This document shows, piece by piece, positions 35,352 through 64,000 of a stretch of DNA of 64,000 bases (the first letter of the stretch is position 1; every line of letters begins with the position of its first letter). The DNA is from Bilabrum cf. latius (Eukaryota), in assembly GCA_965178125.1 (NCBI GenBank), contig OZ237765.1, positions 558,001 to 622,000 of the forward strand, given 5' to 3'. The translations under genes were made by a program, and so were the position numbers. Under the pieces are notes generated by a model. That model did not search any database. It was not told where the DNA came from and saw only the letters and a program-made list of their open reading frames with translations.

Positions 35352-35359
35352 CTGAAGCA

Positions 35360-38638: not shown

Positions 38639-38670
<32 letters not shown>

Positions 38671-40966: not shown

Positions 40967-41684
40967 TGGGGGGGGGGCGGGGGCTGGAATGGTGAATGGG
41001 CGGACGAGGGGGTGGGATGGAGGCTTATTGCAGGTGCATGGTATAGCGGGGCCTCAACTGAATGGGCAATGCGGCCATTGGGCATTGCTAGAAGGAGATA
41101 GAGGGCGTCAGGGAGAGAGTCGCGGATGGGGAGGAGAACGCACAAACTCGTCTTGGGTAGGGTGGCTGAACTTCTCCGCATAATGCATTAGATCTATATT
41201 TGCAGCTGCTGTGAACTCGATTCGGATCCGGCAATGGTCCACCAGCAGAATAGCAGGCTACCGCCCGAACCGATCCGAATCGATCACCAGGTCGGTCCAG
41301 TAACCTTCCTTTTATATCTTATTCGCATTCTCCGGTAGACTATGCCAACATGTCGGTCTGGGTGTCTCTCGACACCGGTACCTTGTGCCCAAGTGTGATG
41401 ATTGTCTTCGGAACCCCTGGCACTTCTGCTTCTCCTAGACTCTACTTTGCTCGAGTATCGCATTTGCACGGCGATGGGATGCTGCAGTAGTAATACGATC
41501 GTTTCTATTCAATGCAGATACTTCTAACCGAGGAATGGGATGCGATAGATTCAGACCGGTAAGGTAGCACGCTCCGATCTTGCGAAGCCGTACAAGCCTC
41601 CCACCGCCAGACTTCTGCTGCGTATTGATCACATGCCGCAATCGGTACTACCGCGATATATTAATGTAGTTACCATGTTCGTAG

Positions 41685-43372
41685 GAGCGGAGATCTGGAC
41701 ATTGGTGAGCTCATGAAGCTCATGGAAAGGATCGGGGTTCAGATCTCAAGGGAGGTTCTCGAGAAGCGCCGAATTCGACGACGACAGCAGCGGGACGCTC
41801 ACTCGAGACGAACTGATACCATTTTTGAAACAGTATCGGACCGGCCAACCGACGCCATCGACGAGCTGATGACCCGATTCGGGTCCGAGGGCAAGATGAC
41901 CGCAGCGCAGTTTGCACGATTCCAAGCCGAGCACCAGGGCGAAGATGGCGCATCAGGAGAATCCCCGGAGCAGCTCCTGGCGCGATACCGCGCTGCGCTC
42001 CTCCAGGCTGCGGATGAGGCGAAAGATTCCGCGGGCGACGTGGATCCCGCCATCCAGGGGTACCGCGCCACAGTGGAACGCGCGGCGAGCCTTGCCGAGG
42101 ACGGGGCAGAGAAGCCCCCCACGGACGGAGCGGCCGCGGCAAGCGGCGGAGGGGGGGGGGCGATGCGACCTCTTCGGCGGAAGGGACGAGCAAGATGAAC
42201 CCGCTGCAGAAGAAGCGGAGCTCGGAGGAAGGCGCCAATGTGCCTCACGCGGTGCGCCGCAATACGGCAGCCGTGGAGGGCGGCGACCGACGTAGAGCGG
42301 AGAAGGCAAAATCAGCCATATCTGGGTCATCCCCCACCGTGGACGTGCGAGAGCTGATGGCGCTGCTAACGGATCCGGAGCAGAACGGCATCGTGGCCCA
42401 TAGCCGGTCTGCAGCGGTGTGGCAGGATATGTCTCGGCCCCTGTCCCACTACCACATCTCATCCACGCACAATTCGTACCTCGCCGGCAACCAGCTCTGG
42501 GGCGAATCGAGCGGCGATGCTCTAAGGCGAGCCCTTTCGCTCGGTGCTAGAGTGGTGAAGCTGGACACGTACGATGGCAGCCCCGAGCCCATCATCACGC
42601 ACGGAGGCACGCTCGCCTCCAAGCTGGGTTTCAGGGACGCGATTCGCGCCATACGGGAGTACGCGTTCCGGAGCGCCAACGTGCGACCGTCGGATATGCC
42701 AGTCATCATCACACTCGAGAACCACTGCTCGCAGGAGCAGCAGGTGGTGCAGGCTCGCTTTCTGCGCGAGGAGCTCAAGGACCTCATGTACGTGCCCCCG
42801 GCCACGCGGCTTGCGCAGTACCCGAGTCCCATGTCGCTCAAGGGCAAGATCATCATCCGGGCGTGCCGCTGCCTGTGGTAGCGGATGACGGAACCGGCGC
42901 CGCGGTAAAGCACACGGCAGAGGAGAAAGCAGCGGCCCAGGAGGAGGACGAGGGGGAGAACGATGGCGGCAAGGAGGAAGGGGGCGAGGGCAAGGCAACG
43001 GGGGGCGGCGGCGACAAGGCTCACAAGCCCAAGAAAGCGATGCATCCGGATCTACTGGCTCTCGTGACGGTGTCAAATGTTAAGTTCAAGGGACTGGACA
43101 AGCTGGGTGTCCTCGGCGCCGGGAGCACGTCGATCTCCTTCGATGAGGACAAGATCGTCAAGGTGGCGGGCAAGTCGCCGAGCAGCGCCGGCTTCATTCG
43201 GTACTTGCAGAAGCACCTGGCCCGGACGTACCCCCGCGGGCTTCGCGTGGATTCATCGAACTACATGCCCACGTCCATGTGGCAGGTGGGTTGCCAGATC
43301 GTGGACCTCAACTACCAGTCGGACGCACAGCGATGTTCTTGTGAAGCCATCCCAACAACACCTGCCGGGTGA
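41685..43372 (+). pseudogene. Phosphoinositide-specific phospholipase C, frameshifted and truncated (pseudogene or assembly error)
   Basis: EF-hand-like GDLDIGEL, X-box QDMSRPLSHYHISSTHNSYLAGNQL, THGGTL, PVIITLENHCS, LKGKIII; Y-box RTYPRGLRVDSSNY. Spread over three frames (shifts at ~42155 and ~42860); similarity stops after LNYQ and no C2 domain follows. Confidence 0.7.
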
Positions 43373-43910: not shown

Positions 43911-45330
43911 AAACACATCACTGAGCACCACATAGAGATACACCAGTGCATGCATCAAAATCACAAATCATTAATACAATTGTATATTATTCTGTACCAG
44001 CAGGCCTTTTGACTTGCTGCAGCTGGGCTAGTGCTGCACACGCCATCTGCGACCAAATCGGTCAGAGCAGGTACCCAAGACAAGTGCGCACTACTTGCTG
44101 CATGCATCTTAAGCTAACTTGACAAGAACTTTCTTATAGGGTGCAAGTATTGCGGCAACACCCCATGAATTCCAGACAATCACCATGCCAGCCTATGCTT
44201 TAGAGCATGGCAGATCTGGTTTGCCCTGAACACTAGCTGCGTGCATCATGGGCCAGGGTTTGCGGTTTTATAATTTAAATTACGGGTTTAGGTTGTCGGC
44301 CAAAGTCTCAGACTAGGCAGGTGAGGTCAGGAGGTCAAGTTGTGATCGACCGGCGAGGTGTCATTCCGGTTCGAGTCTACACGTGCAAAAAAGACAGAGA
44401 TCGGCCTCTGTGCTAGGCAAGACTAGTAAAAGAACTACTAAAGTAGCCTTAGCCAGTAGCTTTCGTTTCTGGCATGGCCGAACTAGCTGGAGCGAACCAA
44501 GATGCGGTCGGAGCAGAGCGCAAATTAACTGGTTCACAGCTTCGTGCTGCTTATTGACGGCGCTTTAAGCACATACATCTGTAATGCAAGCAATGCATTG
44601 CAGAAAAATAAACACAATCATATCTTTTACACAATATCTCCGTGCTATTCACTTGTATGACGGATTTATTGATCAAATTGCAACACGAGCAACCCACATA
44701 TCGTCGGCCGGGATGTTCGGACTTGTGCCTCAAATTTGATGTCGTACGCTGAGCGCAGTTTCCGTTCGAGGTGTAAAAATGGATGAAACGCAATCGAAGT
44801 GGAGAAATGCGTGGTCAGGGGTATCATTTGCGAGGCACGAGTGGGCAGCCGTATGATGGGTGATAAATCCGCAGATTGAGGAGAAAAGGGCAGTACTACA
44901 GCACCAGTCGGTTCGACGACAAGTAAAGGAGAGAATTAGAAGAGTAGTACTAGGTTGTTACGTACGATGTGTGATAGTGTGATATCAGTGCCATTTAGGA
45001 ATATGACGGGTCCTTTCCAAAACTTCACCCCAATCCAATCCGGATCGATGATGTATTTAATCCTGATATCACAGCAAACGCTGGCTTGTCCTGACTATTC
45101 GTGAATAAATAATTGGCCAGTGTTTCATATCTACCTGCTTAAAGAAGTTGTCAACAAGTTGATCCGGCTACGGGAGTTGCCAGCGTGCAAGCATAGTTTT
45201 ACTCAGTGCTTGATTCGCGGGATAGTTGCTCAAATCTATAGCCAGGAACAGTAAAAGAAAGACGGATTTCAAGCAGTTATATACTTGCCTACATATCACG
45301 GGTTCCGCCTTGCGCCATTCATTGTGCAGC

Positions 45331-48300
45331 ATGAACTTGAGAGCGAGGGCATTCATCGTCGTGGCACTCTGCAGTGCCCTTGCTGAACAGTCGAGCCTGT
45401 GTGCTAGAACAGACTAGTGCGGACCGTATTTCACATTCGACACCACTAAACAAATTAATCAATTATGCAGCAACGAATCGAACCCTCCGATGGGTGTAGC
45501 AGACGTACGTAGGACAACGGATTCTTGGGAGGACGGTCAGGTATCTTCAAGAGTGTTGTCACCAACAAAGGCAAATGCATTGATATTGCCGGTGGATGGA
45601 TTCATGAATGTTGTCAAGTCTGGAGACGGACGAGTGGAGCCTAGACGTACCAGCGAGCGTGCAGTTGATGGACGCTCGATGACATTCGCTGCTGGTCCTG
45701 TGCTATCTGCTGCTCGCACTGGAAGATCAGGAGGTGGCGCAGCTGGCTTGGCTGGAGCGCTGGGTCCTAGACTGACCTAGTTTAGCACTTGGAGCAACGG
45801 CAGCTTCTCAGCATCTGTTGGACTAGCGGCCATCGCGCCATGTGATCGCGACAGAAGCGAGCTTTTGCAGACGCACAGCTCATAGGTAGGACAGCTGACC
45901 TCCTTTTTGGGTGGGTGGAAACCGCTGGTGCTGCCTGCCGGATCATCTGGGCTGGTAACTTAGCACTCCAACATCACCATCCTGCTTGACGCAACATTGC
46001 GGCCTTCAGATGCCAACCTTCTGGGTGTCAACAGGAGCACGGTCGTCAGCAGAGGCAATACGAATAGCCCGCTAGATTCAATAAGGGCCGTCCGAGTGCT
46101 ATTTGATAGCGCCGAGCAGCAAACAGAGGTGCCCGACCCACCAGATCTCGACGGGTGCATGTTTGAGAGGTCGGGGGACGCGCGCACGCTGGTGAAGGAG
46201 CTGCACTGGGACCCGAAGCATTTTGGATGGTCTAGTTGGGACTCCGTCCTGGCCAATGTCGCGATGCACGCTGCAGAGTATGTGTGCGATCGCGGCGCCA
46301 TGGATCGAGCTACTGGCAGTATTACCGCTCGTTTGCGATTCAAAGCGGATCCAGTGACTATTTATGGAGCCGCAGCGCTTCTATACAGCTAGCATGGCAA
46401 CTTCAGGCTGGCAGAGCAGGCGACGATGGATCGCAATACCTGCATTCGAGGAGTAGTGCAGGGCGTGTCCGGCCACGCTGTACCCGACTCGCATGTTCAA
46501 AGTAAATCTACGAGTGCTTCTGGTGTATTGGACCAGAAAATCAGCCAGTTCAAGGAGGTGGAGCCCCGCGCTGGAGGCCGGCCATCGATGAGTCCTGGGG
46601 AGGAAGTTGGGCATTTTTCGGCACCTGTTCCAGACCATGATCTACCAGCTGGAGTGTCCCCTAGCGTGACACCTCCAGTGGCTGACTGGACCGTAAGCGT
46701 GGAGCGAGCCCCCCTTGGCGTGGGCTGCATGCCGCGAGACGCCTCATTTCCAAGCAGACATGATGGCAACTACTTCGCCTTGGGACACACGATGCGCTAG
46801 AGGCTGGGACTGACCGAGACGCAGTGGAAGAGAGCAAGTGCTCGCACAGCTGGATGCTTGAGGGTCACAGCGGTGCCCACCATTTCAACGAGAGCTACCA
46901 TGCAGGGTGCATTGACTGGCAATGGATCCTTCACCCGGCCAACTGCGACACGCCTAGACTATGACAGCGCATTGGAAGCATTCGTGGCGCCGAATGGGAT
47001 TCCTGTGCTGCCCAATGGAGCAATGCTTGACATGCCTGTGCAGGCGCAGCGCAACAACCGTGGGGTAGGAAGCTTGCCATACGAGGCGCTTGGAAAGGGA
47101 ATATCGCGCACGAAGGTCGCATGGGGTCCTGGAGACCTTTTCGGCGCGTCGTTCGCAAAGCTGCCTCCGCACCTCTCCGGGTCGTTCAGTCGTCCCCTTG
47201 ACTCTGGAGCGTATGCTTTCGCAAGAAACTAGTCTGTTTTTGCCAACTAGGCCAAGGTTGTCCACGGAGAGCTCGTCACACTCGTCCGACCCCCACCCAT
47301 CCGAGTGCACGCAGTCCGGCTGATTGTGGGTGCCCCTCGTGCCTGGGCAGCGTCTGGCCGAAAAGGAGCCATCTGCGTCGTGGACTTCGTCGTGGACCTC
47401 CTCGATAGGCCCGTTGCCCTGAACGCTGTGGGAGAGGCTGTTCGCATCGACGATCAGGATGCTATCGAGGGTGCAGCTGACGAGGGCCCGGATCTGCTCC
47501 GAAAGCAAGACCTGCAAGAGCGGCTCATTGTGTCCATGTCTAATCCTATCGTTCTGGCAGCACCCGGCCTAGGCGGGGAGCTGACAAGGCAAAGCGGAGG
47601 CTTGGCGCTCGACTTGGACTCGATGCAGGTTCAAGGCGACGTGCATGCTCGCATGGAAGACGTGCTGCGCGCGGGATCGCTCCTCGGTGCATCCCTTGCT
47701 GTCCTTGGGGATCTTTCGCTGCCTACGGAGATGCTTGCCGCGCCTTTCAATGACTCGCTAACGGCAGACCATGGCGCGTTTATGAACACGCATGATTCAT
47801 TTGCACCGCTCTCTGCAATGCAGAGACGCCAGGCAAGCTCGAAGCATCGCTCGGACCGGCAGTCTTACACCGTGATCGCAGCCGGTGCTCCGGGTGCGGG
47901 TACTAGGAAAGAGGGTGCTGTCATTCTACTGTGGCTGCAGGCATCTCCTGCATTGCAAAAGAGACACGCTGTACAAGGACAGGCTGTGATAGACTCAACC
48001 ATGATGTACTCTCGCTCGCAGCCGGGCACCATCCTCGACAGGTTGCCAACTGTGATTGCATGGCGAGTCTTGGGCGTAAGCCCGTAGCCTCATTGCGTGT
48101 ACACGCCATCGTTCTGCCTGTCTCCGGCAGATATGGGCCTGCTCTTGCCTGAGACGCTTAGTCGCGGCACCAACGTCACCGAGGCATTGCAAGGGGCGAT
48201 GCACGTGACGGATGGGCAAGAGTCCTTCCACTGCCAAGGCGAGCTGATCGAGGTTCGACTCGATGATGAATTCAAGGGCATCGCGCACTTGCCCAGTCTA

Positions 48301-51300
48301 GGAATGGTTGTAGATCCACGGCCACGGGAAGCATCGGCAAGTGGTGACATTGACCTGAATGGCACTTTCGCGTCGTGCCCTGCCGGCGAGCTTCCTCCCT
48401 TGCGGGCCTCCGTCAGGTATGACCAGGTATTTATCAATCCCATTGCTCCGCTGCCTGATGCCGCACATGCATGTAGCAGCCCTACACTATTGGTTCAGGC
48501 GTTTGAGAGCAAATGCCTCGAGCGGAGTTCCGTGGATGCGTCGTTTGGGGCCTCGTTAGCAGCGTTGGGCGGTCTGGGGCCGACTCGTGATGGCGTCTCC
48601 ATTGCAGTTGCTGCGAGTAGTCAGGTGATGCTCCCACGCGATGCCTCACAGAACGACACTGAGCGACTCCTTGACAGATCTGCATTCCGGGGGGTTGTTC
48701 ATTTGGTCAGGCTAGGCAAGAACGAGGGCCAGGGACTAATGTCTGGGACAGTTTCCGAGTATAGAGGCCCATTGCGCAGCCTCGCTGTATCTATGGAGGC
48801 GGCTGCAAGTACTGTGCGACGGTAGTAGAACTACAGCAGCTTGGATGCAGGGTAGTATGTCCTCGGGTCAATTCGCGGGAGCCTCGATTCGAATGGCACA
48901 GTGCACCTTGCGGCCCTTGCTGCCCCTCACTACCACCTTAGTGACGGACCATCCTACACTCTGGATCATCAGCCTTTCGGAATGCCAGTATACGCTAGCC
49001 GAGGCCTGAGCTTGAACGAATCGGATGCACGCCGGCTGGCGCCGCTCCTTGCGACCACCGAGGTTCGGCAGAACCCGAAGGCGGTGCTTCAGAACTCAGC
49101 ATCTGTTCTTGCTGATCGTGCAATGGCTGCCTCGGAAGTCAATTGCAGCTCACCCAACTCTGGTTTCAATATTTCCGTCGTGCTCCAAACTAGAGCGATA
49201 GATGTTGGTGTAGAAGCAGATACCCACGTCGAAGTCGAGCTGGACAGCTTTGAGATTATCCGTGCAAGAGTTCTAGGCCTACAGTGTGGGCGTGCTCGTG
49301 TCCTTGCCGCTCGCCTTGACGTAGACATCGAGGCCCGTCGTACGCAAAGTGATCCACAGTACGATCGAGTGGTGCTCGATATATCTTGCGAATGGGGCCT
49401 GATTGCACCTGCTCAATTAGCACTGGCAGAGGCGCAGCTGCAGGAGGGAATGATTCAAGTGGACATGCTCGCTACGCGCCAAGTTGATGTTCCACTCGGC
49501 GGCAGCACCTCGAGGCTGATCGCACTTGCTGGTGAAACAGTCGCAGCAGTGGGCAAGCTTGACCGCGCGATCAACGGCGCGTATACAATGCCCGGTGGTC
49601 TGGCTTATGCATTGAAGTGCTCCCAGGCTGGCAGTGTCGTCTCCATCAGCGGCTGGACCCGACGCACTGGCAGGATGGGTGTCACTGCAACTGGGCAGGC
49701 GAGTGGCATGCTGCTATACAGTGTGGAACAGCGGCGATTTCAGCCCTCGTTTGGTCCTTGGCGCTCCGAGTCGATGATGCTTCCTCCAGCGCTGTCTGAA
49801 TCATTTGATGCAATGGCTTATTTGCACACCCCTCTGCTTCGCATAGGCATTCGGAGGGGTCCTAGGGATGAGGAAGTGCACTTCGTGCCAATGCGCCAGA
49901 ATCGCACAGCTCCCGACGCACGTTTGAATTCAAGCTGGATCGAGCTGGTCAGTGATGGTGGTGCAGGCCGGACCCCATAGTATGGCAAACAGGTACCTGT
50001 GTGGTGGACATCCCGACCAAGTCTCCAGGCTCTGCCAGGTCGCACAACCTACGCCATAGCTGAGCCCGGATTAGTTCTAACAGTGTTTCTGGGCGACGTT
50101 CCTGTGGACGCAATCGCCGTAGAGTCCTGCAGCAATGACACTGTAGAACACCCAATTCAAGCAACGTCTGGTTAGGTTTGCATCCGAGCCGTGTACGTTG
50201 AGCTGACAGCCGTGCCCATTGGCCGTCCAATGCAGGCTCGAGTTGAGCTCTTGCAGCCTGAGGAAGCCGTCGCTCTGCTGGACTCCTCGTCTTCAATGGC
50301 GTGCAAGACGCTGCCTGTTCACAACAGTGGATTGATTCCTGGTGTGATTAGCTGCGCAGACTATGGTCTTGCGGCAGCGGGTGCGTTCGAAGCCAATGTG
50401 ACAGCAGCTGTCAGGGCGATCGCATCTCTGCGTTCCGGGCTCGTTCAGCTGAACTAGTCATGGGTAGACATGGCACCAAATGCTACTGGTTTGCACAAGG
50501 TGCACGTAGCGCGCGCCCCAGTCTCACAAGGCCCTCTGACCTTTGGGGCTACAGAGGGTGCAGAATGGGCACCCAGGGCCACGCGTGAGTTGCTAGGACC
50601 GTCAATCCGTGGCATGTCTGTTGCAGTGGGCGGTGCTCCCGGGTACCTGACAGCGGTTCACTCGAACGCGAGCAGTGTCGATTCGGATCCCTCAACCGAC
50701 GCCGTGCAGGCAATTCCTAGAGGCAAGACGTGGTCTGGCCGCACCCGCCTCTCAGCGTCTGGAGCTGATGACATTCGGCTAGACGGGGTGGGACTGTCTA
50801 TATCATCGGCTGCAGCTGGTCCCGCCTTTTCACCCAATGACACAGTGGTAGAACTCAGCTGCCTCATTGACGAGACCCATAGATGGCTCAATGCCTCTGC
50901 AATCGACGGCCAGCGACTTCGTTCTAGCCGAGGGTGTAGTCGCATGCAGCGCGCTCTATGGGCAGCGGGGGGATTGCCTGGCGGATTAGCGGGAGCACTT
51001 GCCATTCGCATGCCTGAGAATGGTTCCATCGACTCGGCTGCAGGTCCACAGGGCAGCAGCAACGAGACCTACCCGTGGGAATCGTCAACTATAGGCCTCC
51101 ATGCAGCTCAAAATGAGTCGATCAAACATATTATTGATGCAGCAGCCGCCGCGGGCAGCGAGTGGGCTCTTGCGTCACGAGGTACCCCCCAAACCTACCT
51201 AGGCGGCGAGGCGTGCCCAGCTGCCATCGTTGGGGCTCAATGGCGGCAGCACGACTTCAGCTTCGTTGTGGCTCCGGACAATAGCACAGGGGCGCCCCCT

Positions 51301-54300
51301 GCACCGATCGGCGTGTCCGGCTTCGGCACAAGCAGCGAGCCGGTGCATCCTGCCCCGTTGCTCATTCGAACGCCTCCGCTTATGGTAGGCACACAAACCG
51401 GACGGCGCGCCAGCCTCCGCACGACGCTACCGTTTCAGGAGCGGCAGATTCGAAATAGTGCAGACCTTGGCTCAGCGTCAGCCGTGGAGGAGCCGATTGC
51501 AGCCGTGGGTCTCTTGCTGGCTGCTGGAAACTCTTGGAGGATGCACGCACCAGCCGGGTCGACGAAGCTAGCTGTTGAGCCGTTCGCGCTTGGCAAGCTC
51601 GAGCAGCAGGACATTTCCATTCCATACGAAGGCGGGACATCTATTCAGCTGACAGGCACCGGTGCGCTTGCACTTCTTGGGCTCGGAATGGCAGATCTTG
51701 TTCGGCAGACTGCAGAGATGAACCGATTTATTCCTTCGCTGCTAGAATCACCAGCTATGTGGCCAATGCTCCCCGAGAGCATACCTGCAGGCAGAATCGC
51801 CATCAGATCCGGCAACCTGAACAGCTCTGCAACACTGAACGATGGCGATTCCCTGGCAGTTGGGCGCACGCTCCGATCTCGCGCTGGGACAGGACCTGCA
51901 GTAGGCAGCACTGCTGAGCTGCGCATCCCGCTGGCATCCATTTCTCAGGGTGTCCCGAAAGGCCTTGTGGTTGCAGCAGCTGCGTGGAATGGAACCAGCC
52001 TGGTCGAGGGTGCGCATTCTAGCGTTGCGACTGAGAGTCCCCCGATTCTTCCCGCTGTCTCAAGAGACAGTCCCATCGCGTCGTATCTCAATGAGTACCT
52101 AGAGCCCACTCAGCCAGTCGTGTAGAGTCGGAGCAGATCGAGCTCAGAGTATGCTGCAAGTGATGTCAGTGCTTCAAGCCTGGGTATTCGGCTTGCAGAT
52201 ATCGATGGTCATGCTAGCAGCATGAAAGTTGTGCTGCAGCGCGTGGTGCGACACGTGCCTTGCCGGGCATGCGAGGCGCGGGCGGCGTTATATGCCGGCC
52301 AGATGGACCAATTTGACCTTGGCACAAAAATTGTTCCAGCGGTTCTAGATAGGGTTCAGGTCACGTGCAGATATCGAGCCATTAGGCCTTCCCCCACGCC
52401 ATCTACTACAGCCAGCGCCACGCCCACGCCATCTACTACTACCACAGCGACTGCAACGCCCACGCCATCTACCACGGCCACAGCGACTGCAACAGCCACA
52501 GCAACATCGACCCCAACGCCGTCTACTACGGCCAGCGCCACGCCCACGCCGTCAACAACAAGTACGGCGACTGCATCGGCCACGCAGACGCCGATACCAT
52601 CAACGAGTGGAACATCGGGCGCTACGCGGCGGCTTCAAAACTCATTCGATGATGTATTTCTTGATGCTACCTGTCAGTACTTGGAAGCTTGGGTCCCGCA
52701 GCCTCTAAAGGGATCGAGATCGCAATTCAACGACTACCGAAACATTCAAGACATCACGCACACGTACGCTAGCAAGGACACCCACGACACTCTGCTTAAC
52801 GCCTGCACCGTGGCGGACAACCAGCAGGACTTTTTCAACTCTGAAATGCAGTACAGCCGAAACGACCGGCGGCTCAGACTGGTGGGCGAGGCCGATTTCA
52901 GTCGGCAGTGGAAAGGAGAAAGGTACGAGGTTCAATTCGGCTAGGGATCATGTACTACGACCATCGTTCCAAACAATGAGCTGATTGTAGTGCCTAGAAC
53001 CGACGCATCGCTAGCTGGTCGCGAAGGATTCTGGAGGCGTAGCAAGCCGCGGCCACCGGAAGATCCGAAAGGACTGCCTGTTTTCGATGCCGATTGCGCG
53101 AGCCTGAATCTGAGCAGCACCAATGTCAACGAGACACGAGACATATACTGTGATCTGCACACGAGGAGTGCAGTCTGTGCCTTGTGGATCCCTGTCGCCG
53201 CTCAACTCAACTTGACCACGCCGTACGGTTCCGGAGTCGACCTTCAGATGGCTGGGATGGCCACTAGACGGGCGATGAGAACCGATGCGGCGATGATTTC
53301 GTCCAGTGACAAAGCTTTACAAGCACCGCCCGATAGACCCCTCGCTTTGCCCGAGGATTCTACAGACTAGTTTAGCGTTGCCGTGATGGATGGATCCTCC
53401 AGGCTAGGAGGACCTGCCACTGAGCTCGTGCCAGCACCGCATGACGCAGCCTTATCGAGTACACGATGCTTGTCCGACAGCCCTGGCATTCCAGGTGCAC
53501 CGTGTCCAGTCACGCACAGTATGGTTCCAGACGCTGTGCAAGCCGGTGCAGTGAGGCATTACGATTTGGTTCTCTCGCCACTCAGACAAGAGTACCGACC
53601 GTCACTGACCTTCGAGTAGCCGATCCTCTCTTGGATCAACAACCCGTCGAGTAGTGTGGATAGAGAGCGACTGGAGCCTCAAGGAGGGCAGTTTGTTGAG
53701 GCCGCTGTATCAAATCTCCCACCTGAATGGCTGCTGCAATCTCCACTGCAACAGATGCATACTGCCGCTAGCCGTGGATAGGGCTAGCTACAGCTGTATA
53801 TGCGAAACACGCTGATGCCTACGTAGGATATCGTGTCGACCGTGTATCCAGGCACGTTGTCTGCTGGACCCTGGCCCGATGCAGCCCCTATGCTCGTGTC
53901 AGGGCTACGGCAGCAGTATTGCGGGAGAGACGATTCCAAGTGTGTGTACATTCCTTCAGAGACCCTGCCGTTCGACTCAGCAGTCGCTCCAATTGCGGTG
54001 GCAATCGACGGTACGGAGAGCTTGCCGAACGAGCTTGGATACTTGCAGGTGTACGTTCTTAGCATAGTTCCTTCGATTGTGCTTCCGTCCGCCCCTGGTG
54101 TTATCCAGTATACGTTCGAGGTCATCGGTGAGGGTGTGCAGGACCCAGACATCGTGATTCGGGAAATCGTGATCGGGTCGGTGCGCTGCGCCAGCTTCGT
54201 CAGATTCCCGGAGCAAGAGAAGCGACTGGACTGCACCGCGGAAGCTGCCGCTCTTTGGACCAACGATACAGCATACTACAGGCTCGAGACGTCCGGCGGT

Positions 54301-57300
54301 GGGCTGACAGACACCCAGAAGAGAAGCTTCTTGCGGCCACAACCTCCCCCGGAGGTTCTGGCCGTAAACACTGCCATTGATGACGAGCGCCCAAGGAAGG
54401 AAGGAGTGGAGCCCAGCATCGAGGGCCGCGTGCCCACAACAGGAGGCCTGTTTGCCATCATTGCCGGCCTGGGGTTCGGTACCAAGGACCGCCAGCCGGG
54501 CGAGATAGGACCCGATCGGTAGTATGACGGTGACGTGGAGTATGTGGATTTCGGGGAAGGTGAAGACGCTGTCCGGGTGTTTCACAATCGCATGGAGTAT
54601 GCGGACGGCCGAGAAGAATACTGGGTGCCGGTGCGCGATACCAACGGAGACCTCGTTCGAAACCGGCTGTAGCCGATACAGGATCCCTCGGATGTTCCAG
54701 AAGCGCTGTCGTCTTTGAGCAAAACCGATCGCAACAATGCGGATGGACCTCTCATCGATTGGAGGTCTGGGAACAATATCGCGGTAATGATTCCTCCCGG
54801 GGTAGGATCAGCGTCACCTGTGCAAGTTGGCATGCGTACTGGCATTGCTTCACCTCCTGCCGGTACGAGCACAGTCATTTACTCTAGGCCCTAGCTTGAG
54901 CAAGCATTCCCATCGGTGGCTCTTTCTCGCGATTTTGATGTGACAATTGTGCTGAAGGGGCAGTACTTTGGGTATCGGGATGAACACATTGACTTTGTGT
55001 CAATCGGTGGGTTGCTATGCAAGAACGTTCGACAAGGCGCCGATTTTTCGGTTCTGCAGAGATTCGAAGGTTCTTCCGAAGTGCAGGCAGCCAACATATC
55101 CAACCTGGAGGGAAGGTATATCACCTGCAATGGACTTGAATCGACCTATGAGACCCTGAGCGATGATGGCAACAGCACGCGTCTTCCAGTGGGTGATGAG
55201 TGGCCCACTGGAGACGTGGTGGTGCAAGTGGCGGGCTAGCGAACAACCTCGAGCACCGTGTTGGATCTCCAAGGTGTCCCCACTGTGAATTCACTAACAC
55301 CAGTCACCGACCAATCCACAGACTTCGACACCTCTGGATATGGTCAGGCAATTCTGAGCGGAGAGGGGTTTGGGTTGGACGCTCGCGACGTTGTTGCCGT
55401 TGTATTTGGGCCGTGGTGGACGTCAAATATTGCGAGTGACAACGAACTTGATGTCTTGGAGCATTGTGTTAACCCACTGGTGCTCACAAGCGAAGGGGAG
55501 CTCCGGCCGCAGCCTAACGCGACGCCTTCAATATCGCCGGCTGCCAACGGAATCGAACAAAATGTACCAATAAGTTCCAACGCAACATATACCCGTGGAA
55601 ATGGCAGTTTTGTCAGTCCGAGGAACAGCGCGTCTCCCACACCAAGCACCTCAACGTTGGTCCGGCCGGGGAACGAAACTGGGCAAGAAGAAGCGAGCAA
55701 CGGAACCATCGGCAGGCGGGTGCTTTCAGGTAAGAATGGTACAACCGACAGCGCATCGAACTCGACTGCTGGAGCAACGTGGAACGGCACATGCCCCGAA
55801 GTGCATACGTTTGTACCAAACAGCTGTAGTGGTCCTAATGGCACTTCATCCGTGAGATCGAACTTGACAGAGTAGGCTACGAACGGAACGTCTTCTGGTG
55901 GGGAGACAAACGGCAGCACCTAGGCTAGATCTACTCCATCGAGCAGTCCTTCAAGCACCCCTACTCCGAGTAGTTCCCCAAGTCACACACCAAGCGTGAC
56001 GCCTTCAATATCACCTACCCCGTCCGTGTCTCCAAGCGGGTCTCCAAGCGGGTCTCCAAGTAGCTCAACAACTCCGTCTGTTACGCCATCAACGTCTGTG
56101 AGTCCATCGTCTACTCCTCTTGTACTTGCTAGGGACGCTTGCAGCGTACTCTGGGCAAAGACTCAGGCCAGCGATGCAGGTAGTAGCAGCGGAGACGCAG
56201 CATCTGGAAGGGTGCAGTCTGCCCCTGACAGTACCGTACAGTGGCGATCTAGATCGGAGCTGAGAGTTGACGTTCCGGCTGGTGCAAGTGCTGAGGTGGG
56301 AGTTGCAGTCGTCATGCGAACCGGCACCATCGCAATCGGAACATTCGGTTACGAGCCACCCACCATCATGACTCTCCAACCCGACAGTTTCATCTTTGGC
56401 GAGCCAAGGCCCATCCTTGTGTGCGGCGCGAGCTTCGGAGCTGGCCTGCCCATTACGCGCGACTTGACGTTTGGAGGGCGACGCTGCCTTGGCTTCTCGG
56501 ACATCAGCCTTGCAGACGCATCTGCAATGGCACTTGATCGCGGGGGCGTTATTGAAGTGGCGGATCAATATCAGCGGATGCTTCCGGTGGTATCGTGCCT
56601 GATCTGCAGCCAGCTAGAGTGGAGCAAGAATGACTTGAGTGGTCTCGTGGAGTGGACGGGTCCGGTTTCCGTTACCGTTGCAGGCTAGGCATCAGATTTC
56701 ATCATTCCTCTAGGTACTGCGCCTCGGGTAATCTCTCTTGTTCCTGATGAGTGCTCTGACACGACAGGGGGGAAGCAGTATAGTGTCATTGATGCATCAG
56801 AGCTAGGCGTGTTTGGATCCAGTCCCCAAGACATTGAGTACGTGCTGCTGTCCGGATTTGACCTTGAAAAAGCAGCGATGCTAGCAGGCTTCAACTCAAC
56901 CACTACTATCCCAGGCAAACAAGAGGGCATTGTGAATGGGTCTAGGCTCATGGAACCCGAAAGTCTCGCTGCCATGCGAATCCCTTCGTGGCAGCTGGCA
57001 GTTGCTCTGCCCGTTCTCGGGTCCTCAAGCTCGCCAGTCATTCCAATTGGAAACGTAAATGCTACGCTGTAGTCTGCCAGATGGGTGTCTAGCGTGTCAC
57101 TTGAGATTGTCCTCCCGCCGGGGGCAGGAGACACGATTCAGGTCCGGGTGTAGCTGACAGGGGGTGCAGTGAGCAAGCCACAAATCTTGTCGTACTGCCC
57201 CCCGTCCATTGACGACGATAATTCGATCGTAGTGCTTGCTGGGGACGAAGAAGCAACCTTTGTGCTCCGTGGCCGTTCGTTTCCACTCGTCCTGGAACAG

Positions 57301-60300
57301 TTGAATGACCTTCGGGTTGGTGGTGTCTAGTGCAAGAGGGTTGAGTTGGTTGAGGTTGGTCGGGCGGTGCGATGCGTTGGCTTGAAATGGATCACTGCAT
57401 CGTAGGCTCGTTCAAATGCATCAACTGGTTTGGATGGCATGGGCGTCATTGGGAGTACCTGGCCTTCCAGCGGAACCTCTATCACTGTTTTGGGGCAGGG
57501 ATCGTAGGTTTCTTTAGTTGCGATCAACCTGATGCCGCCACCTCGTGTGACAAGCGTCCAACCAACGGAAGCCGGTCCGGGAGAGACAATCACGATCACG
57601 GGGGAAGGGTTTGGTACCAGCTCTATGGATCTGCGAAATCTCACACTGGGTGGAGTCCCGTGTCAGGGGACGCCTGAGAGCTGGTACAAATCTGATTCTG
57701 AGCTAGAGTGCCTCATTCCGAGCGATCATTCCCTGTGGCAGTACGTCTCGCAGAATCCCGGAGCAGTGCAGCCATACGTTGGAATCGAGGTGGTCATGCG
57801 CACGGGCGTTTCCAATCTCGAGAGGTACGAGAACGACGGAGAGGAAATCACCATTGACCCATCAGATATGCTGTCTGACAAGACCGTCGACGGGCTCCTG
57901 CCGCCTGGCAATTTCGGTATGGATGCGCCAATATTCGCTAGGCTAATCCCCAAGGGAATCGCACAGAGCTTCCCACCGCCTGTTCCACCTCTTGCGCCAA
58001 CAGCATGGAGAGAAGTGGGCGATGATCTGCAGGTCATTGCGAGGTGGTTCTACCCCTCCGAGGATCTAGAAAGGCTTGCAGTTAACCACATCAGCGGAAC
58101 CCAAGCTCTAAACTTCTTGCCTGCCTCACGTTTCAGGGTAGAAGCAGCGCTTGAAGAGAGCAGCCTTGGTACTGCAGACGCAATTCAGCACACTGAGTCA
58201 CGGATTCTAGGTGCAGATACCCTTTAGGCGCCTTGGATACTGGAGTCATTCGATGACGATGTGCTTGGTGAACTCGTGGAAGAAGCTCAGTAGTGGAGTA
58301 TTGGGGCATTGGCTGCCAATGCGACCTCAAACGCGACTGCATCATCGATTGCTGCGAGGCTGGCGAAGCTTAATGGCGAATACAGCGATCCATCCGGCGT
58401 TCTTCATCGCGTTCTCCAAGAGAGAACAAGAGTGAAATCTGGAGGTGCTGCTGCGACTGACCTAGGGACGGTGAGTGCGTGGTACATGGTGGAGACCAGC
58501 TTCAACGTGCCATCGTCGGAGCCCTACGTGATCCGAATCAGAGCCGAGCATTTTGCTGGTGGAAATGAAGCCAAGATGAGGTCCAGTGACTGGGCCTACA
58601 TCTCGGCTCCCGTGAAGGCATCGTGCCAGTTCAACAGGTTTATGCCAGACGGGCTTGGGCTACGGTAGCAGTGCTTGCCATGCCCAGTTGGAGCGGTCTG
58701 TGGGGGTATGGGCTCCAGTAGACTCGCAGCCATGGAAGGGTATAGGAGGTTGGAATGGTCGTACGGTTAGATAGGCTTCATTCGTTGCGAGACGGAAGGA
58801 GTATGCAGGGGTGTGCCGTAGTAGCTGCAGCTAGAAGCTGAGTTGGCTGGAATGCCACCGCAGATGCAACTGCAGCCAGACATGCAGTTGCAGCTGGCAC
58901 TTGCACAGACGAATGGAAACGTCCCCGTAGCGTAGGCCCTCATCCGCCTTTGGAGATTCCATGGCCGAGTAGCGTCTATAGTTGGCACCGGCAATGACCT
59001 GATGGAGGCGTCCTTGCTCGAACTCCCGGACGAAAACAGTCTGGATAGCGGCTCTGAAGCAAGAAGGCTTCATGCGAAGCTGGCACAGGAGCTATCGGGG
59101 CGATTGCCTTTGAGGCTCCACGCGGATCACTTCTTGCAAGCTGAGCGAATCCTCCAAGGTGCAGCAGACGTGCCAGCGAATTCGGAGCTGCCGAGGTGGG
59201 CCCTCGAGCGGGTGCGATCGGTGCCTGCCCAGGACGAGAATGGAACTACCTTCGAATTCTAGCTAGCCCCTCCAGATGATGTTATGCGCCTGCTGGCGGC
59301 ATACTCGGAGAGCCAGGCACCGTCAGCGGTACAAGGGATCCAGACCCTTGCCAGCGAGGACCTTGAAGGATGCGTTGAGGGTCACACTGGCATTCTCTGC
59401 CAGAAATGCGAGCTTGGATATTTCAAGAATGCTATCGGTACGTGCGTGCTGTGCCCCTCGCAAGAGGAGACTGGTCTTTGGTCCCTTGCCCAGAGGATGG
59501 TAATCGGGGCTTCCATTCTCGTTGCGATTACAGGTATCCTGTACAATGCGTGGAGGTCGCAGAACGCAGACACGACAAGGAAAGTTGTAGTTGTGGCTGC
59601 TAAAATCATGTTTACGCACGTGTAGACAATTGGTATCATTGGTTCAGTGGACATGCAGTTTCCCACGACAATGGGGAACTTCTTTGGCGGTGCCTCCATC
59701 GGTGCTTCCGCAGCGACGAATGGCGTCGCGCTGGAGTGTAGTCTTGATGATTCATCAGATCCAGTTGGATAGACCATGCTAGCCTATGCCGTACTTCCGG
59801 GCCTGCTGATGTACGCATGCGTCATGTGGACCGTGGAAGTATACACTTCCTATCTCGTTGCATTCCTCAAGAGGCCAGAGCAGAGTGCTGGGGCCCGCTT
59901 CTGCCCTAACTGGCATCGCGTTCTGACCTGTCGGCGTACAACCGACTGGGAGAAACACGTGCAGAAGGCAAAGGAAATTACTGAGAACAGCCAGTCGGAA
60001 TCTGAGCAGCTACGGTAGTGGGACGCATACCGCCGTGAGGTAGCCTACACTCCGGGATTATCACGGCTGTCGTGGTTCGACGCCTGCTGCACGTGCTGTC
60101 TTCGGTGGTGCGGGCGCGGTAGCGACGGCTCGCAGCTCAAGTCGCGAGTTGATATGCTGGATGGAGCTAGGCAGTAGCAGTCGCATTCGGGCAACTCAAG
60201 CAACCGCGCAACTGGTGGGCCTCAACAGACAGATCCTATCCCAACGATGCGGCCAGCTAGACATGGGCGGAGCTCCTACGGTAATTCGTGGGCGAGTAGG

Positions 60301-63300
60301 AGATGGTCCAGAAGTCACAGGACAAGTGGCCCATAGGCATAGGTTAATTAGGGCAGGTTGGGAGGGCAGCAACTCAGCGAGTACGCTTCTTCGTCTGTCA
60401 CAGAGCACCGTATCTTAGTATCGGGCACACGGGGAGGTGCGAGATAGAATAACCTCACCTCTGGTCCAACTCGTTTCGGTGGAGCTAGGGCGGGTGCTCG
60501 CACAGGGCGCCGTTCTGGCGGAGCAGCTTCCTCTACCTTGGCTGCAGGTGGTGCTGCAAGGGCACTCAGGCACATGGGAGGCACGCGATCTTCAGGGGGG
60601 GCATAGCTGGTGGCACATGTTGACGGCGAATTCGTTCGGAATCCAATGCGACATCGGGCGTCCTAGCGCAGAGTTGGAGTAACGATTTCCGATGCAACGG
60701 CGCGACAGCTAGCTGTGACGGTCTAGGAAAGAGATTCTAGGCGTAAACTGGTTTCGATGGCACCTACACCTGGAATCTAGCATGCCCACCCCAATGCCTC
60801 CAGGTTCAGAGACAATGATCTAGTGCCAGCCGTTGAGCTCTACGGCAGATATCTCAATCCTGACGAGGTGGAAATCGCGCGGCAGTAGGGCCAGATAACC
60901 TCGCTGCCTTCGCTGTACGACATGCTGAAGAATTTCGCCCCTGACCAGCTAGTGAGACAGAGATAGAAACACGCCCGCGGCTAGTTTGCGTCATCAAGTT
61001 TGGTCAGGCAAGCAAGCGAGCGAGGTCCAACCGGAACTGTCGGCGGCGACGCTGCTGCGTGGCAAGACCAAAGCATCCCTCTTGTCGACTAGATTCCTCT
61101 ACACGAGGGCATCACCCACGAGACGGAGTGCTTTGATCTGTGCTCCATGTTTGGCAAACGGATGGGCCTGTCCTTTCTTGTGATTAGCTTCCTCGTGCAT
61201 ACCCCGATCACTGAAGCAGCGCTCAAGATACTGTCCTGCAGGCCTATCCAGCCCGAGTCTGGTGCATCGTTTGATGCCTTGACTGAAGCAAGGAGAGACG
61301 CGTTTGAGTCCGCAAATCTCACTGTGCCCGTTGTGAACGCTCCAGAGTCAGCTTGGCTGGCGTACAATGCGTCAGTGCAGGCAGTCGAAGAGTGGGCAAT
61401 GTACGGCGAGTCACCAGCGGCCCAGATGCAGCGCCGTCTGGTCATGGACCTGGAGTATGAGTGCGGCAAGACCATACTCAAGAGGTTGCAAATTGCATTA
61501 CCAATGCTAGGCTTCTGCTTGCTCGTTCCAGGCATAGTGTTTGCTCTAGTTAAGTTTCGATGCGGGAACATCTCTGCGGAGACTTGGGAGAACGTCGAAA
61601 AGTCCATGAGTTTCCTGTACAATGGCCTCGCAGATGACCACAAGTACTGGGAAGCTGTGAATCTGCTCCGCAAGGGGATGCAAGCCGTGGCAGTGACTCT
61701 TCTTGCCCCTATAGGGACGATGTACCAGCTCTTTTGTATGCTGTGCGTGTTACTGATCTCGCTTGGCCTGCAGGCCTGCAACTCTCCATACTAGTAGTCG
61801 CTGCGGACCGATCAGAGTGGTCTGCCTGTCATTCAGCTCGATGCGTCTGGAAGAAAGGTGAAGTTCCAAAAAATTGATGGCGCAACAGCTGGAGGCGCAG
61901 GTGCTTGGTCGAGTGAATCAAACGGCACCAACGAAGTTGATGAGAATGGAGCTGCCAGTGGATCGAGCAAACCGGATGCCAAGGATGATCAAAATGCCCC
62001 CGCGAGCGTTGCTCCTCGTCAAAGAGGGGCTCGTGCTTCAATACGAAGGTCGACAATTTTTGGTGGCCCGAGAAAATCTAGTACGACTACGGCGACGAGT
62101 AGTGGTGGTGTCGAGACTCGCAGAAGTTCCCAGTCTCTGAGGGAGTCCAAGTCTTAGCCGACACTAAAACGCCGTGCGTCTGCCGCAGCCCCCAAGAAGT
62201 CCATCACTGGGCTTGCAAAAGGAGAGGACAGTCTGCCTGAAAACGTCAAGTGGGAAGCAATGCCAGACGAAATCTACAAACGCTGGAAGCAGAGCCTGTT
62301 CCAGCACGTAGTCAGCGCAGCTCTCCGCAAGATGCCTCCGAAACCTGTTGAGCCCTCGAAATGGCTGTTCGAGACCGAAGATTAGTACATGCAACGGCGT
62401 CGGAAATTCAAGGAAGCTGCAAGCCGCTATCCAGCCGATTGCAGGCGGCGTATCAAGCAATTGAGCTAGGAAGTGCGGAGAGCCAGCTCCCATGGCATTG
62501 GCGCCAAGCGTGATCGCGCTCTGTTCGAAAAGGAGCTGCTTGAGAAGCCCTATGCTACGATTAGTGGTGGCGACTGGATCTACTGGATTGCGAAGACCCT
62601 GTGTTGGCGTTGCCACGCAGAGGTTCGCCTCTACGAGAAAGCAATGCAACGAGACGCGGTCCGACGCTGGCTGATGCACGCAAGGATGCAGAAGCGGCAG
62701 TCAATGGAGCCAGTTGAGCGGTATGACCCTCTTGAGGTGGTTCAAAAGGCCACGACAGGACCGTCATCGAGCCCGTTGCCGTCATCAAGAACGACAGCAA
62801 AGGGAGGCGCTGGCAACACAAAGTCAGGATCCCACAATGATGATGATGGTGATGGTGATGGTGAGGTGATGGAGGCTCCATCAAGGAGGGTCCGGAGGCA
62901 TACTCGGCTTTCTCTCTTTGATAACTCAGGACACAGTGACTCCTGGCGGCAGATGGTGCAGAGCGGGCGGCGTTCCATGGCCACAGACCTAGGCATGCCC
63001 GACCAACAGTCTGTCAATGCATCCGAAAGCAAGGTGGAAAGCAAGGGGGCGGGCGGCGACTCGTATTCAAGCTCGAAACCATCCGAACGGTTCATTGACG
63101 AAGCACGTACGCCGTTGGGGTTAGCAGCCTCCGTTCCTGTATGGGTTCCCGACAGTCCTGTGCAGCAAGTGCTCCCCCGAGCCAGGCGCGCGGACTCCAT
63201 CGGCTCGACAACGAGCTTTGACAGCGAGCTCGACATCGATGAGGAGAATTACCCACTATTGGCGCCGTCCATGCGCGATCTTCTGGGTGCAATTGACGAT

Positions 63301-64000
63301 GGACTCAACGTTTTTGCCGACTACGACGATGACAAGGGCGCACCCGGCGAGCGCAAAACCGAGGCGGTGAGGCAGGTACCGGCCGTCTAGTACCAGTACG
63401 ACAATCTGCTTAATCGGCTTGAGCTGCTTGCGATTGGAACTGCAGCTATCTCTCTTCTCATGGTGCTCGTGGTGGAGGTGGAAAGGCAGGTGCAGAGCTT
63501 AGAGGCCTATGGCATCGGCATCGGCATTGATACTCCAGCCACCTGGGTCATCATCATCAGCAACATAGGTCTGATCATATTTGCCATTAGCAGCTTCTGG
63601 TAGGAGTTTAGGGGCTTCGTGGCGAGTGCATTGAGTGCAGGAACACTAGCAATGGGTACCGCTGGTTCCAAGCTCGACGGACCGTGCCAGGTGTGCGGGT
63701 CAGTGCTGGGCAATGCAGCTGCAGGGTTTGCGTACATTTTCTGCTGCATCTGCATATGTTCGTCATTCTGCAAGAGCACATTGACCAAGCCACGATTCCA
63801 TGGGGCGAGCCGCCTTGGTCACGGCTATATGTCTAGCGGCCCCACCTTGACTGGGCATCCGGTGGGTCGGGGCACTATCGGCCCCTCCTTGGCTGGGCCC
63901 CCGGTGGGTCGGGGCACTGGTGGCCCTAGGTAGGCTGAGACTCCTGTGAGTTGGGGCACTGGTGGCCCCACCTTGACAGGGCGCCCGGAAGGCCGAGACA
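45331..64000 (+). CDS. Giant (>6,200 aa, 3'-partial) intronless cell-surface protein: signal peptide, FG-GAP-like repeats, Thr/Pro and Ser/Pro linkers, IPT/TIG repeats, Cys-rich region, multi-pass TM domain; roughly 65 in-frame TAG
   Basis: All + strand fragments from 45331 to the window end share one frame; I read the gaps and found only TAG, never TAA or TGA. Motifs: MNLRARAFIVVALCSALA; GDLFGASFA, LIVGAP, GSLLGASLAVLGD, FGASLAALG; PRVTSVQPTEAGPGETITITGEGFG; CLPCPVGAVC, CVEGHTGILCQKCELGYF; KIMFTHV*TI...FP, FLYNGL...YWEAVNLLRK, PY...NRLE. Confidence 0.85.
52385..52605 (+). repeat. Coding mucin-like repeats (PSTTASATPT)n
   Basis: Imperfect repeats of ACGCCATCTACTACAGCCAGCGCC...; a second Ser/Pro/Thr tract lies at ~55930-56118. 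Confidence 0.75.

Follow-up and report, generated by a model that had tools for sequence, protein, structure and literature searches.

Evidence that UAG, and very probably not UAA, encodes glutamine in the nuclear genome of a GC-rich protist

We analysed a 64,000-nucleotide stretch of DNA (hereafter the window) and conclude, with high confidence, that the genome from which it comes reads UAG as glutamine and does not read UAA as glutamine. The fuller description that we favour, and consider probable, is a nuclear code in which UAG is glutamine, UAA is a residual terminator that does not enter coding sequence, and UGA ends every gene seen. The original prediction for this DNA had proposed a table-15-like code (UAG as glutamine, with UAA either a stop or nearly unused), and its testable parts were upheld: TAG was found at glutamine sites, in-frame TAA was absent from the well-supported genes, and TAG ended none of nine ORFs.

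Results

Gene content of the window

The window is eukaryotic nuclear DNA and is intron-poor, with a GC content of ~60% (0.49–0.66 per 2-kb step) and GC3 values ranging from 0.58 to 0.82. It contains MACPF, Sec1, kinesin, NPC1, TAF1-like, lipase and PI-PLC genes as well as three giant genes (Table 1), with Pfam matches to kinesin (1.7e-75), Sec1 (2.6e-33), the sterol-sensing domain (6e-37), MACPF (6.6e-19), lipase (4.3e-26) and PI-PLC-X (8.9e-45). The Sec1-family and MACPF genes are convergent, with 115 bases between their stops. When TAG was read through, ORFs of 6,258, 3,120 and 2,400 codons were obtained; with table 11 the maximum across the window was 1,080 codons. Pfam domains are found in these long frames, and their orthologues run collinear with them through the TAG positions. 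Giant gene L looks like a membrane protein, with homologues that carry IPT/TIG, DUF7630 and TRP-like modules, and a search for near-length homologues of giant gene E returned a single weak match.

Between 23100 and 28160, a codon-usage scan detected no coding signal and Pfam returned no convincing family; because this interval is satellite and duplicated DNA, it yields no additional gene ends. Within the 64-kb window, ARAGORN found no tRNA genes, Rfam found no families, and the combined Pfam and ORF survey found no eRF1 gene.

Table 1. Coordinates of features in the 64-kb window, with in-frame TAG counts and stops.
Feature	Start	End	Strand	Details
MACPF/B-lectin gene	433	2406	+	2 TAG; TGA 2404-2406
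Sec1-family gene	2522	5791	-	1 TAG; TGA 2522-2524
Kinesin gene	6157	8553	+	3 TAG; TGA 8551-8553
NPC1-type sterol transporter gene	9178	13410	-	6 TAG; TGA 9178-9180
Giant gene E (WD40 + BTB), 9.4 kb	13749	23111	-	15 TAG, 0 TAA; TGA 13749-13751
Giant gene F (TmcB-TPR/PAS), 7.2 kb	28149	35351	+	16 TAG, 0 TAA; TGA 35349-35351
TAF1-like region (DUF3591)	35114	39568	+	three overlapping frames; last ends in TGA at 39566
33-nt tandem units	39040	39200	+	in last TAF1-region frame
Class-3 lipase gene	39857	40966	+	0 TAG; TGA 40964-40966
PI-PLC gene	41512	43372	+	126-nt GT..AG intron at ~41559-41684
Giant gene L	45331	64000	+	first ATG 45331; frame open from 45226 to 63999, 3' end open
Conserved-glutamine TAG codon	59623	59625	+	residue 4800 of giant gene L frame from 45226

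TAG codons stand at glutamine positions

Two close orthologues from another public assembly, P0002 (95% identical to the kinesin) and P0122 (92% identical to NPC1), could be aligned without gaps across the TAG positions. P0002 has glutamine at both of the kinesin TAG positions (codons 6523-6525 and 7084-7086), and P0122 has Q, E and Q at three NPC1 positions (codons 10558-10560, 10369-10371 and 10306-10308), which together makes glutamine the residue at four of five TAG positions and glutamate the residue at the fifth. The one highly conserved site is in giant gene L, whose TAG at 59623 aligns to glutamine in 107 of the 113 distant homologues aligned there (the remainder being serine in four, alanine and valine) and in both homologues of at least 50% identity. 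In the same gene, the TAG at query position 380 matches glutamine in two of two close homologues and the one at query position 12 in two of three; several further TAGs fall at variable sites, where homologues have R, G, H, L, M, T or A. Leucine was never found at the conserved 59623 site; its single occurrence is at a variable site, in a fragment of 72% identity. Judged from these alignments, TAG is translated and stands where relatives have glutamine, as the original prediction had proposed in assigning UAG to this amino acid.

The 33-nt tandem units of the TAF1-like region have CCG CAG in three units and CCG TAG in a fourth, which lends weak backing to the same assignment because the coding status of the frame is itself putative. 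A canonical glutamine codon lies beside 8.3% of TAGs and beside 9.3% of glutamine codons, with values of 5–13% for other amino acids; we set this neighbour test aside because it does not discriminate between meanings of TAG.

TAA is absent from coding sequence

For our main count we used eight solid ORFs, all with Pfam domains or homologues, which together comprise 16,073 codons and contain 109 TAG, 0 TAA, 153 CAA and 446 CAG; in-frame TGA was likewise absent. With the TAA:TAG ratio set equal to CAA:CAG, gene by gene, the expected number of TAA codons was 44.7, and at an A-share of 0.255 the probability that all 109 UAR codons would end in G was 1.1e-14. The A-ending codon is well represented among comparable pairs, with CAA making up 25.5% of CAA+CAG and with similar shares for GAA and AAA. 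Each of the window's other reading frames contains 57–72 TAA, so the triplet is not rare in the DNA itself. UAA is thus not a sense codon here, and TAA is kept from coding sequence. These counts agree with the earlier observations on which the original prediction was built: it had described an 18.7-kb frame with about 65 TAG and no TAA, for which we counted 66 TAG, 0 TAA, 0 TGA, 75 CAA and 154 CAG; it had seen no in-frame TAA in the genes that it sized at 9.2 and 7.2 kb, in both of which we counted none; and its wider claim of no sense TAA held across the eight ORFs. Neither an internal TAA aligned to glutamine nor a tRNA-Gln(UUA) was seen within the 64 kb.

TAG accounts for 15% of glutamine codons overall (109/708). 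The share is lowest in two GC3-rich genes (0–2%) and reaches 22% in the giant gene of lower GC. This pattern fits a codon that arises from CAG through C-to-T change and is tolerated wherever it appears.

The TAF1-like region and the PI-PLC gene

Because the gene model of the TAF1-like region is provisional, its TAGs were excluded from the main count. Its three frames span 35114-37534, 37357-38790 and 38345-39568, and one apparent TAG would disappear if the 35-nt GT..AG stretch at 37348-37382 were removed. In the PI-PLC gene the coding signal changes frame several times. The PI-PLC-X frame (42018-42908) meets a TAA at 42906-42908, the sole TAA seen in any coding frame, beyond which coding resumes in another frame, with the Y-domain frame ending in TGA at 43370. 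Hand inspection of 42863-42932 found no GT..AG pair of the length class needed to splice around this TAA and connect the PI-PLC-X and Y frames.

Contigs from sequencing runs

No RNA run was among the sequencing runs listed for the window. Runs X5–X8 were compared as contigs, a comparison that carries no strand, transcript ends or expression levels. In run X6, a contig of 19,349 nt begins at 45085 and is collinear with the window over 45085-48000 with 0 differences, an interval that includes 8 TAG codons, and the same run also contains a GT..AG-spliced contig. The TAG codons are therefore probably present in RNA, although the RNA nature of X6 is a guess for a run labelled 'probably DNA', which makes any exclusion of RNA editing conditional. 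For giant gene F, contigs ~90–93% alike were found in X5 and X8, with 26 of 32 listed differences at third codon positions and no difference listed at the TAG at 34680; the third-position excess in these diverged copies indicates purifying selection. Contigs of three runs end at 40960-40965, right at the lipase stop. We considered a poly(A) site at this point and rejected it, as the G-run after the stop more likely breaks assembly.

Every gene end observed is TGA

The original prediction had placed eight gene ends, all at TGA. We verified each of them (2404, 2522, 8551, 9178, 13749, 35349, 39566 and 40964) and found that a ninth, at 43370, is also TGA, so that among the nine ORF ends examined there were none at TAG and none at TAA. 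For NPC1, the orthologue P0122 shares its last residue with the TGA-ended ORF. The original prediction had also cautioned that the window cannot show TAA terminating, and indeed no TAA-terminated gene was seen. Extra in-frame stops within three codons past the stop were present at three of 11 ORF ends, all of them TGA and none TAA; two of these tandem cases are at real ORF ends and the third is in the TAF1 region.

Discussion

Alternative readings

The strongest competitor to our interpretation agrees that UAG is glutamine but holds that UAA is neither decoded nor a terminator, leaving UGA as the sole stop, with a 'UGA-only' ciliate-type eRF1 and a CUA suppressor tRNA only. We consider it unlikely. 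The gene ends lean slightly its way. In intergenic DNA the share of TAA among TAA+TGA is 0.30–0.36, which predicts ~3 TAA ends, and at that share the probability of finding none is 0.03–0.06 for eight ends and 0.02–0.06 over eight or nine; the tandem stops, being all TGA, point in the same direction. However, when the share is taken from off-frames overlapping coding sequence (~17%), the probability of none in eight rises to 0.23, and the tandem cases are few, with one of the three in the TAF1 region. Moreover, UAA is still a terminator in both of the UAG-only nuclear codes considered here in detail, those of the rhizarian exLh and Iotanema spirale (PMC5304391). Zero TAA ends thus tilts the balance slightly toward UGA as the only stop in a sample of eight or nine ends. 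The corresponding evolutionary picture, of a lineage (probably stramenopile) halfway along the path from the standard code to code 6 in which UGA is the only terminator and UAA is truly unassigned, seems to us improbable to a similar or slightly greater degree.

Much less credible is ordinary code 6, in which UAA and UAG would both be glutamine and GC pressure or tRNA supply would make TAA too rare for the window to contain it. The genome is GC-rich, with high GC3, and UAR as glutamine is the commonest nuclear variant (as stated in PMC5304391), but the A-ending sister codons are well used, and a chance of 1e-14 attaches to the missing ~45 TAA; a bias that removed all TAA but spared CAA would amount to UAA being undecoded. 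Nor do we give much weight, and here even a little less, to the idea that UAG is Glu, Leu or Ser, or is sense or stop depending on context. Glutamate does occur at one close-orthologue position, non-glutamine residues occur at several variable giant-gene sites, and codes with UAG as leucine or serine are known (PMC5304391, PMC11687900). Against this, glutamine occupies the other four close positions, the conserved 59623 site is overwhelmingly glutamine and never L or E, and a dual meaning sits poorly with a codon that ends none of the nine ORFs yet occurs as near as 31 codons before the TGA of giant gene F. The least plausible alternative is that the TAGs are not translated as such, owing to U-to-C RNA editing, tiny in-frame introns, pseudogenes or assembly errors. 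The several frame changes of the PI-PLC gene are of the kind that it would predict, and the 35-nt GT..AG stretch of the TAF1-like region implies that, where gene models are weak, some apparent TAG codons are not genuine. But gene decay cannot account for a frame of 18.7 kb that has 66 TAG and is free of TAA, TGA and frameshifts; orthologue alignments run gap-free across TAGs; 8 TAGs are unchanged in a contig from the run that also contains a spliced contig; and diverged copies differ mostly at third positions, as under purifying selection.

A possible mechanism

Under our preferred reading, in which UAG is glutamine and UAA a residual terminator, a tRNA-Gln carrying the anticodon CUA would decode UAG. 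By wobble rules this anticodon would pair with UAG and not with UAA, and it could derive from tRNA-Gln(CUG) via a single base change. Wobble rules and precedent also lead us to expect no tRNA-Gln(UUA) in the genome. The release factor eRF1, which the original prediction required to separate UAA and UGA from UAG, would have lost recognition of UAG while retaining that of UGA. Recognition of UAA is most likely retained as well, and UAA would then serve as a rare terminator in a GC-rich genome. We infer this tRNA set and release factor by analogy with published precedent, namely the tRNA(CUA) specificity and the change in the eRF1 GTS motif described for Iotanema (PMC5304391). On balance, we clearly prefer UAA as a terminator to UAA as an unassigned codon.

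Relation to known codes and lineages

In NCBI table 6, the ciliate, dasycladacean and Hexamita nuclear code, UAA and UAG are both glutamine and UGA is the only stop. The window resembles this code in having UAG as glutamine and UGA at all observed stops, and departs from it in using TAA as glutamine 0 times versus ~45 expected. Codes of the Condylostoma/Blastocrithidia type use one codon as both sense and terminator by position; in the window, by contrast, TAG is found at none of the nine ends and the solid ORFs have no in-frame TGA or TAA.

The type of code proposed here, with UAG as glutamine and UAA not sense, is rare but has precedents in Iotanema and in some ciliates. In the fornicate Iotanema spirale, UAG is glutamine and UAA and UGA are stops (PMC5304391). 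Like the window, Iotanema has UAG at conserved glutamine positions, never as a terminator, and is described without sense UAA; the mechanism inferred above, with its predicted tRNA-Gln(CUA) and an eRF1 blind to UAG, would also be shared. The two differ at gene ends, with UAA the main terminator in Iotanema (104 of 119 gene ends, PMC5304391) and TGA at nine of nine here. Termination at UAA has been demonstrated in Iotanema (PMC5304391), whereas what the window offers is 0 TAA among nine ends. Iotanema is, furthermore, a metamonad, whereas the window is GC-rich and its NPC1 tree points to a stramenopile. Among ciliates, Protocruzia tuzeti and two phyllopharyngean lineages read UAG but not UAA as glutamine, the same assignment as here, with independent origins in several lineages according to PMC11687900; the NPC1 of the window stands apart from ciliate and alveolate sequences, and its DNA is ~60% GC. 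Other UAG-only codes have different meanings, leucine in the rhizarian exLh and serine in Scotinosphaera (PMC5304391, PMC11687900), unlike the window, where glutamine is supported and leucine and serine are not. The 'genetic code 15' of crAss-like phages also has TAG as glutamine and, as described in PMC9523058, keeps both other stops. Those phages depend on a bacterial host, whereas the present case concerns the nuclear genome of a eukaryote, in which spliceosomal introns occur.

The assignment to stramenopiles comes from a single-gene tree, in which the NPC1 protein groups with a bicosoecid. Scans of metagenomes gave zero matches to 4,999 amino acids of giant gene L and, with the kinesin alignment, 80 loci that were all at or below 38% identity and hence not a relative's DNA; a scan of genome contigs for relatives' DNA found nothing, and the TAG-free lipase matched only generic lipase clusters in the ESM Atlas, with no taxonomic lead. 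Our literature search, which ran outside subscription journals, found no reported nuclear stop-codon reassignment in stramenopiles and no report that UAG is glutamine in any stramenopile or GC-rich protist.

To our knowledge, UAA and UAG are nearly always reassigned together, and the nuclear lineages that separate them amount to a handful. The window would add a further independent case of decoupling, from a GC-rich, intron-poor protist that is a probable stramenopile on the single-gene tree, a background unlike those of the known cases. Should UAA prove to be unassigned instead of a stop, the genome would give a rarely seen view of stop-codon reassignment at an intermediate step. A genome assembly apparently exists, from which tRNA-Gln(CUA), eRF1 and genome-wide stop usage could be read directly; the Iotanema discovery was transcriptome-only. 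In practical terms, a gene finder that assumed the standard code would fragment nearly every long gene of this organism, and databases already contain such pieces: a 465-amino-acid piece of a 798-amino-acid protein and an 874-amino-acid piece of a 1,410-amino-acid protein.

Gene content of the window

Read with translation table 11, no ORF of the window exceeded 1,080 codons in length, the size of the longest. When TAG was read through, ORFs of 6,258, 3,120, 2,400, 1,410, 1,089, 798 and 657 codons appeared, in DNA with a GC content of 0.49–0.66 per 2 kb. The 18.7-kb gene L (45331–64000) had no Pfam match above threshold; its homologues bear IPT/TIG, DUF7630 and TRP-like (PF06011) membrane modules. 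This family comprises very large proteins (matches of 2,000–7,000 amino acids) with two conserved membrane-region blocks, at residues ~220–410 and 930–1057 of the 1,200 residues used as the query.

Coordinates of the reading frames and genes discussed in the text
Feature	Position	Strand or end	Basis
6,258-codon ORF	45226–63999	3′ end open	TAG read through
MACPF gene	433–2406		Pfam
Sec1 family gene	2522–5791	minus strand	Pfam
Kinesin gene	6157–8553		Pfam
NPC1-type sterol transporter gene	9178–13410	minus strand	Pfam
WD40/BTB giant (gene E)	13749–23111	minus strand	Pfam
TmcB-TPR/PAS giant (gene F)	28149–35351		Pfam
DUF3591/TAF1-like region	35114–39568		Pfam
Class-3 lipase gene	39857–40966		Pfam
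PI-PLC gene	41512–43372		Pfam

TAG appears to be read as glutamine

Homologues from the databases show that TAG is translated, and as glutamine. The protein P0002, from another assembly, is 95% identical to the window kinesin over 465 residues and has Q at both of the TAG positions that it covers. P0122, which is 92% identical to the window NPC1 over 876 columns, has Q, E and Q at three covered TAG positions, and its last residue is the last residue of the TGA-terminated NPC1 ORF. Neither alignment has gaps around the TAG positions. For gene L, searching 1,200 residues against 1.84 billion representatives yielded 433 matches, and we read the TAG columns from the local alignments of the best 150. 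Among these, 113 distant homologues cover the TAG at 59623; 107 have Q there (the remaining six have S four times, A and V), as do both homologues with at least 50% identity. Other TAG positions of gene L are variable sites at which homologues have mixed residues: Q occurs in two of two close fragments at one site and in two of three at another, and further sites align to R/R/G/Q, H, L, M, T/A, A/S and K. Within a 33-nt tandem repeat, three units have CCG CAG, and a fourth unit has CCG TAG.

UAG = Leu and UAG = Ser variants are among those described in PMC5304391 and PMC11687900; the homologue residues at TAG positions did not support Leu, Ser or Glu. Two short database fragments, P0243 (query position 379) and P0242 (514), stop one residue before a gene L TAG, as expected from a standard-code gene caller if the relatives carry TAG there too, although this is suggestive only.

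Editing of TAG in transcripts would offer another way past these codons. A 19,349-nt contig from run X6, starting at 45085, had no differences from the window over 45085–48000, a span with eight TAG codons. The run also has a spliced contig, which suggests that it is RNA, but the kind of run is a guess and its annotation reads 'probably DNA'; RNA editing of TAG is excluded only if the run is indeed RNA. As a separate line of evidence, contigs from two other runs, X5 and X8, show only ~90–93% similarity to the 3′ portion of gene F (34248–35167). Of their 32 listed differences from the window, 26 fall at third codon positions, and the TAG at 34680 has none listed. These copies come from a sister species or strain or, alternatively, from a paralogue that purifying selection maintains.

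TAA is absent from the solid coding frames

The original observation of about 65 TAG codons, no TAA and frequent CAA in the frame from 45331 was confirmed by our counts (66 TAG, 0 TAA, 0 TGA, 75 CAA and 154 CAG). Across eight solid ORFs (16,073 codons, omitting TAG codons in the DUF3591/TAF1-like region and the PI-PLC gene, whose gene models are uncertain), we counted 109 TAG, 0 TAA, 153 CAA and 446 CAG. Were TAA:TAG equal to CAA:CAG, one would expect 44.7 TAA codons; finding none has a probability of 1.1e-14. GC pressure does not account for the shortfall, since GAA and AAA, too, are in good use. The window's other frames contain 57–72 TAA each. Selection therefore acts against TAA in coding frames, and TAA is not a working glutamine codon.

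According to PMC5304391, a tRNA-Gln with anticodon CUA decodes UAG and not UAA, whereas a UUA anticodon decodes both. The codon pattern would fit a CUA-anticodon tRNA-Gln alone supplying UAG decoding, together with an eRF1 that lacks UAG recognition; the eRF1 of the fornicate Iotanema is described as having a T-to-G change in the GTS motif (PMC5304391, PMC9161772). Such an eRF1 might still read UAA, which would then be an infrequent terminator because the genome is GC-rich, or UAA might be unassigned; we favor the former as about three times more likely.

Stop codons and the PI-PLC gene

All eight gene ends originally listed as TGA were confirmed, and a ninth TGA was found at 43370. With nine of nine ORF ends being TGA, we agree with the earlier view that the window cannot show termination at TAA. 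The probability of no TAA in eight ends is 0.03–0.06 when the TAA share of TAA+TGA is taken from intergenic trinucleotides (0.30–0.36) and 0.23 when taken from off-frame trinucleotides (0.17).

The one TAA met by a coding frame lies in the PI-PLC gene, which is legible in at least three frames. The frame encoding a complete PI-PLC-X domain (E = 8.9e-45) reaches a TAA at 42906, 15 codons past the domain, and the acidic linker and Y domain lie in a different frame; a search for a GT..AG intron of suitable size to join the two frames found none. There are at least two further frame changes, though the window and the X6 contigs are collinear there. We tentatively read the gene as decayed or recoded, and do not take the TAA at 42906 as evidence for termination.

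A canonical-looking EF-hand loop is out of frame with its flanks, as if one shift had been compensated by a second. Other shifts include one near an 11-G run (~42148–42160), at which the TGA of an upstream frame and an ATG of the X-domain frame share the bases ATGA (42195–42198), and another between the X domain and linker; X6 contigs are collinear across all of these features. The gene may thus be split, recoded or a pseudogene. A stretch of 126 nt, bounded by GT..AG at 41557/41684, is missing from an X6 contig; its removal brings both parts of an EF-hand-like motif into the same frame, which indicates that the genome has spliceosomal introns.

Known codes and lineage

UAG = Gln with UAA not sense is described for Iotanema spirale, Protocruzia tuzeti and phyllopharyngean ciliates (PMC5304391; PMC11687900), so the code type is already known and the window is an additional case. 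It differs in that only TGA stops were seen, whereas UAA is described as dominant in Iotanema, and in that, unlike the published cases, it is GC-rich and its lineage is probably stramenopile. In full-text literature, with most subscription journals outside its coverage, we found no report of nuclear stop-codon reassignment in stramenopiles; the source assembly, whose runs date from 2025, may already be described in print.

A 30-sequence NPC1 tree joined the window protein and its 93% relative to Cafeteria roenbergensis and to unnamed sequences, with SH-aLRT values of 88–94 on the enclosing forks; a brown alga formed the next branch out, and alveolate and plant sequences were separate. The tree covers a single gene and its stem branch is long, so we treat the probable position, a stramenopile possibly near bicosoecids, as a lead rather than as a placement. 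For kinesin, the top matches were taxonomically mixed.

Introns, repeats and gene boundaries

Excision of a 35-nt GT..AG stretch (37348–37382) would connect the DUF3591 frame to the next TAF1-like coding frame, and the apparent in-frame TAG at 37349 would then belong to the 5′ splice site. Should this candidate intron be real, the genome has very small introns.

A satellite with a 123-nt unit (~15 copies, 98% matches, 23425–25299) is open in several frames because its unit lacks stops; it shows no coding signal, and no Pfam family matched it convincingly. A 150-nt duplicate (23002–23151 and 25835–25984, 100% identical) covers the annotated 5′ end of gene E, whose true start, given this duplication, may lie downstream of 23111. 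A 300-nt direct repeat (25495–25794 and 27581–27880, 99% identical) has copies 2,086 nt apart, and the 5-kb gap next to gene E may hold a repeat-bounded element.

At the end of the lipase gene (40964–40985), a G-run follows the stop (TGA T G10 C G5), and contigs from three separate runs terminate within 6 bases of the stop, probably through assembly breakage at the G-run. The MACPF and Sec1 genes are convergent, with TGA stops 115 bases apart (2404–2524), so their 3′ UTRs must overlap or be very short.
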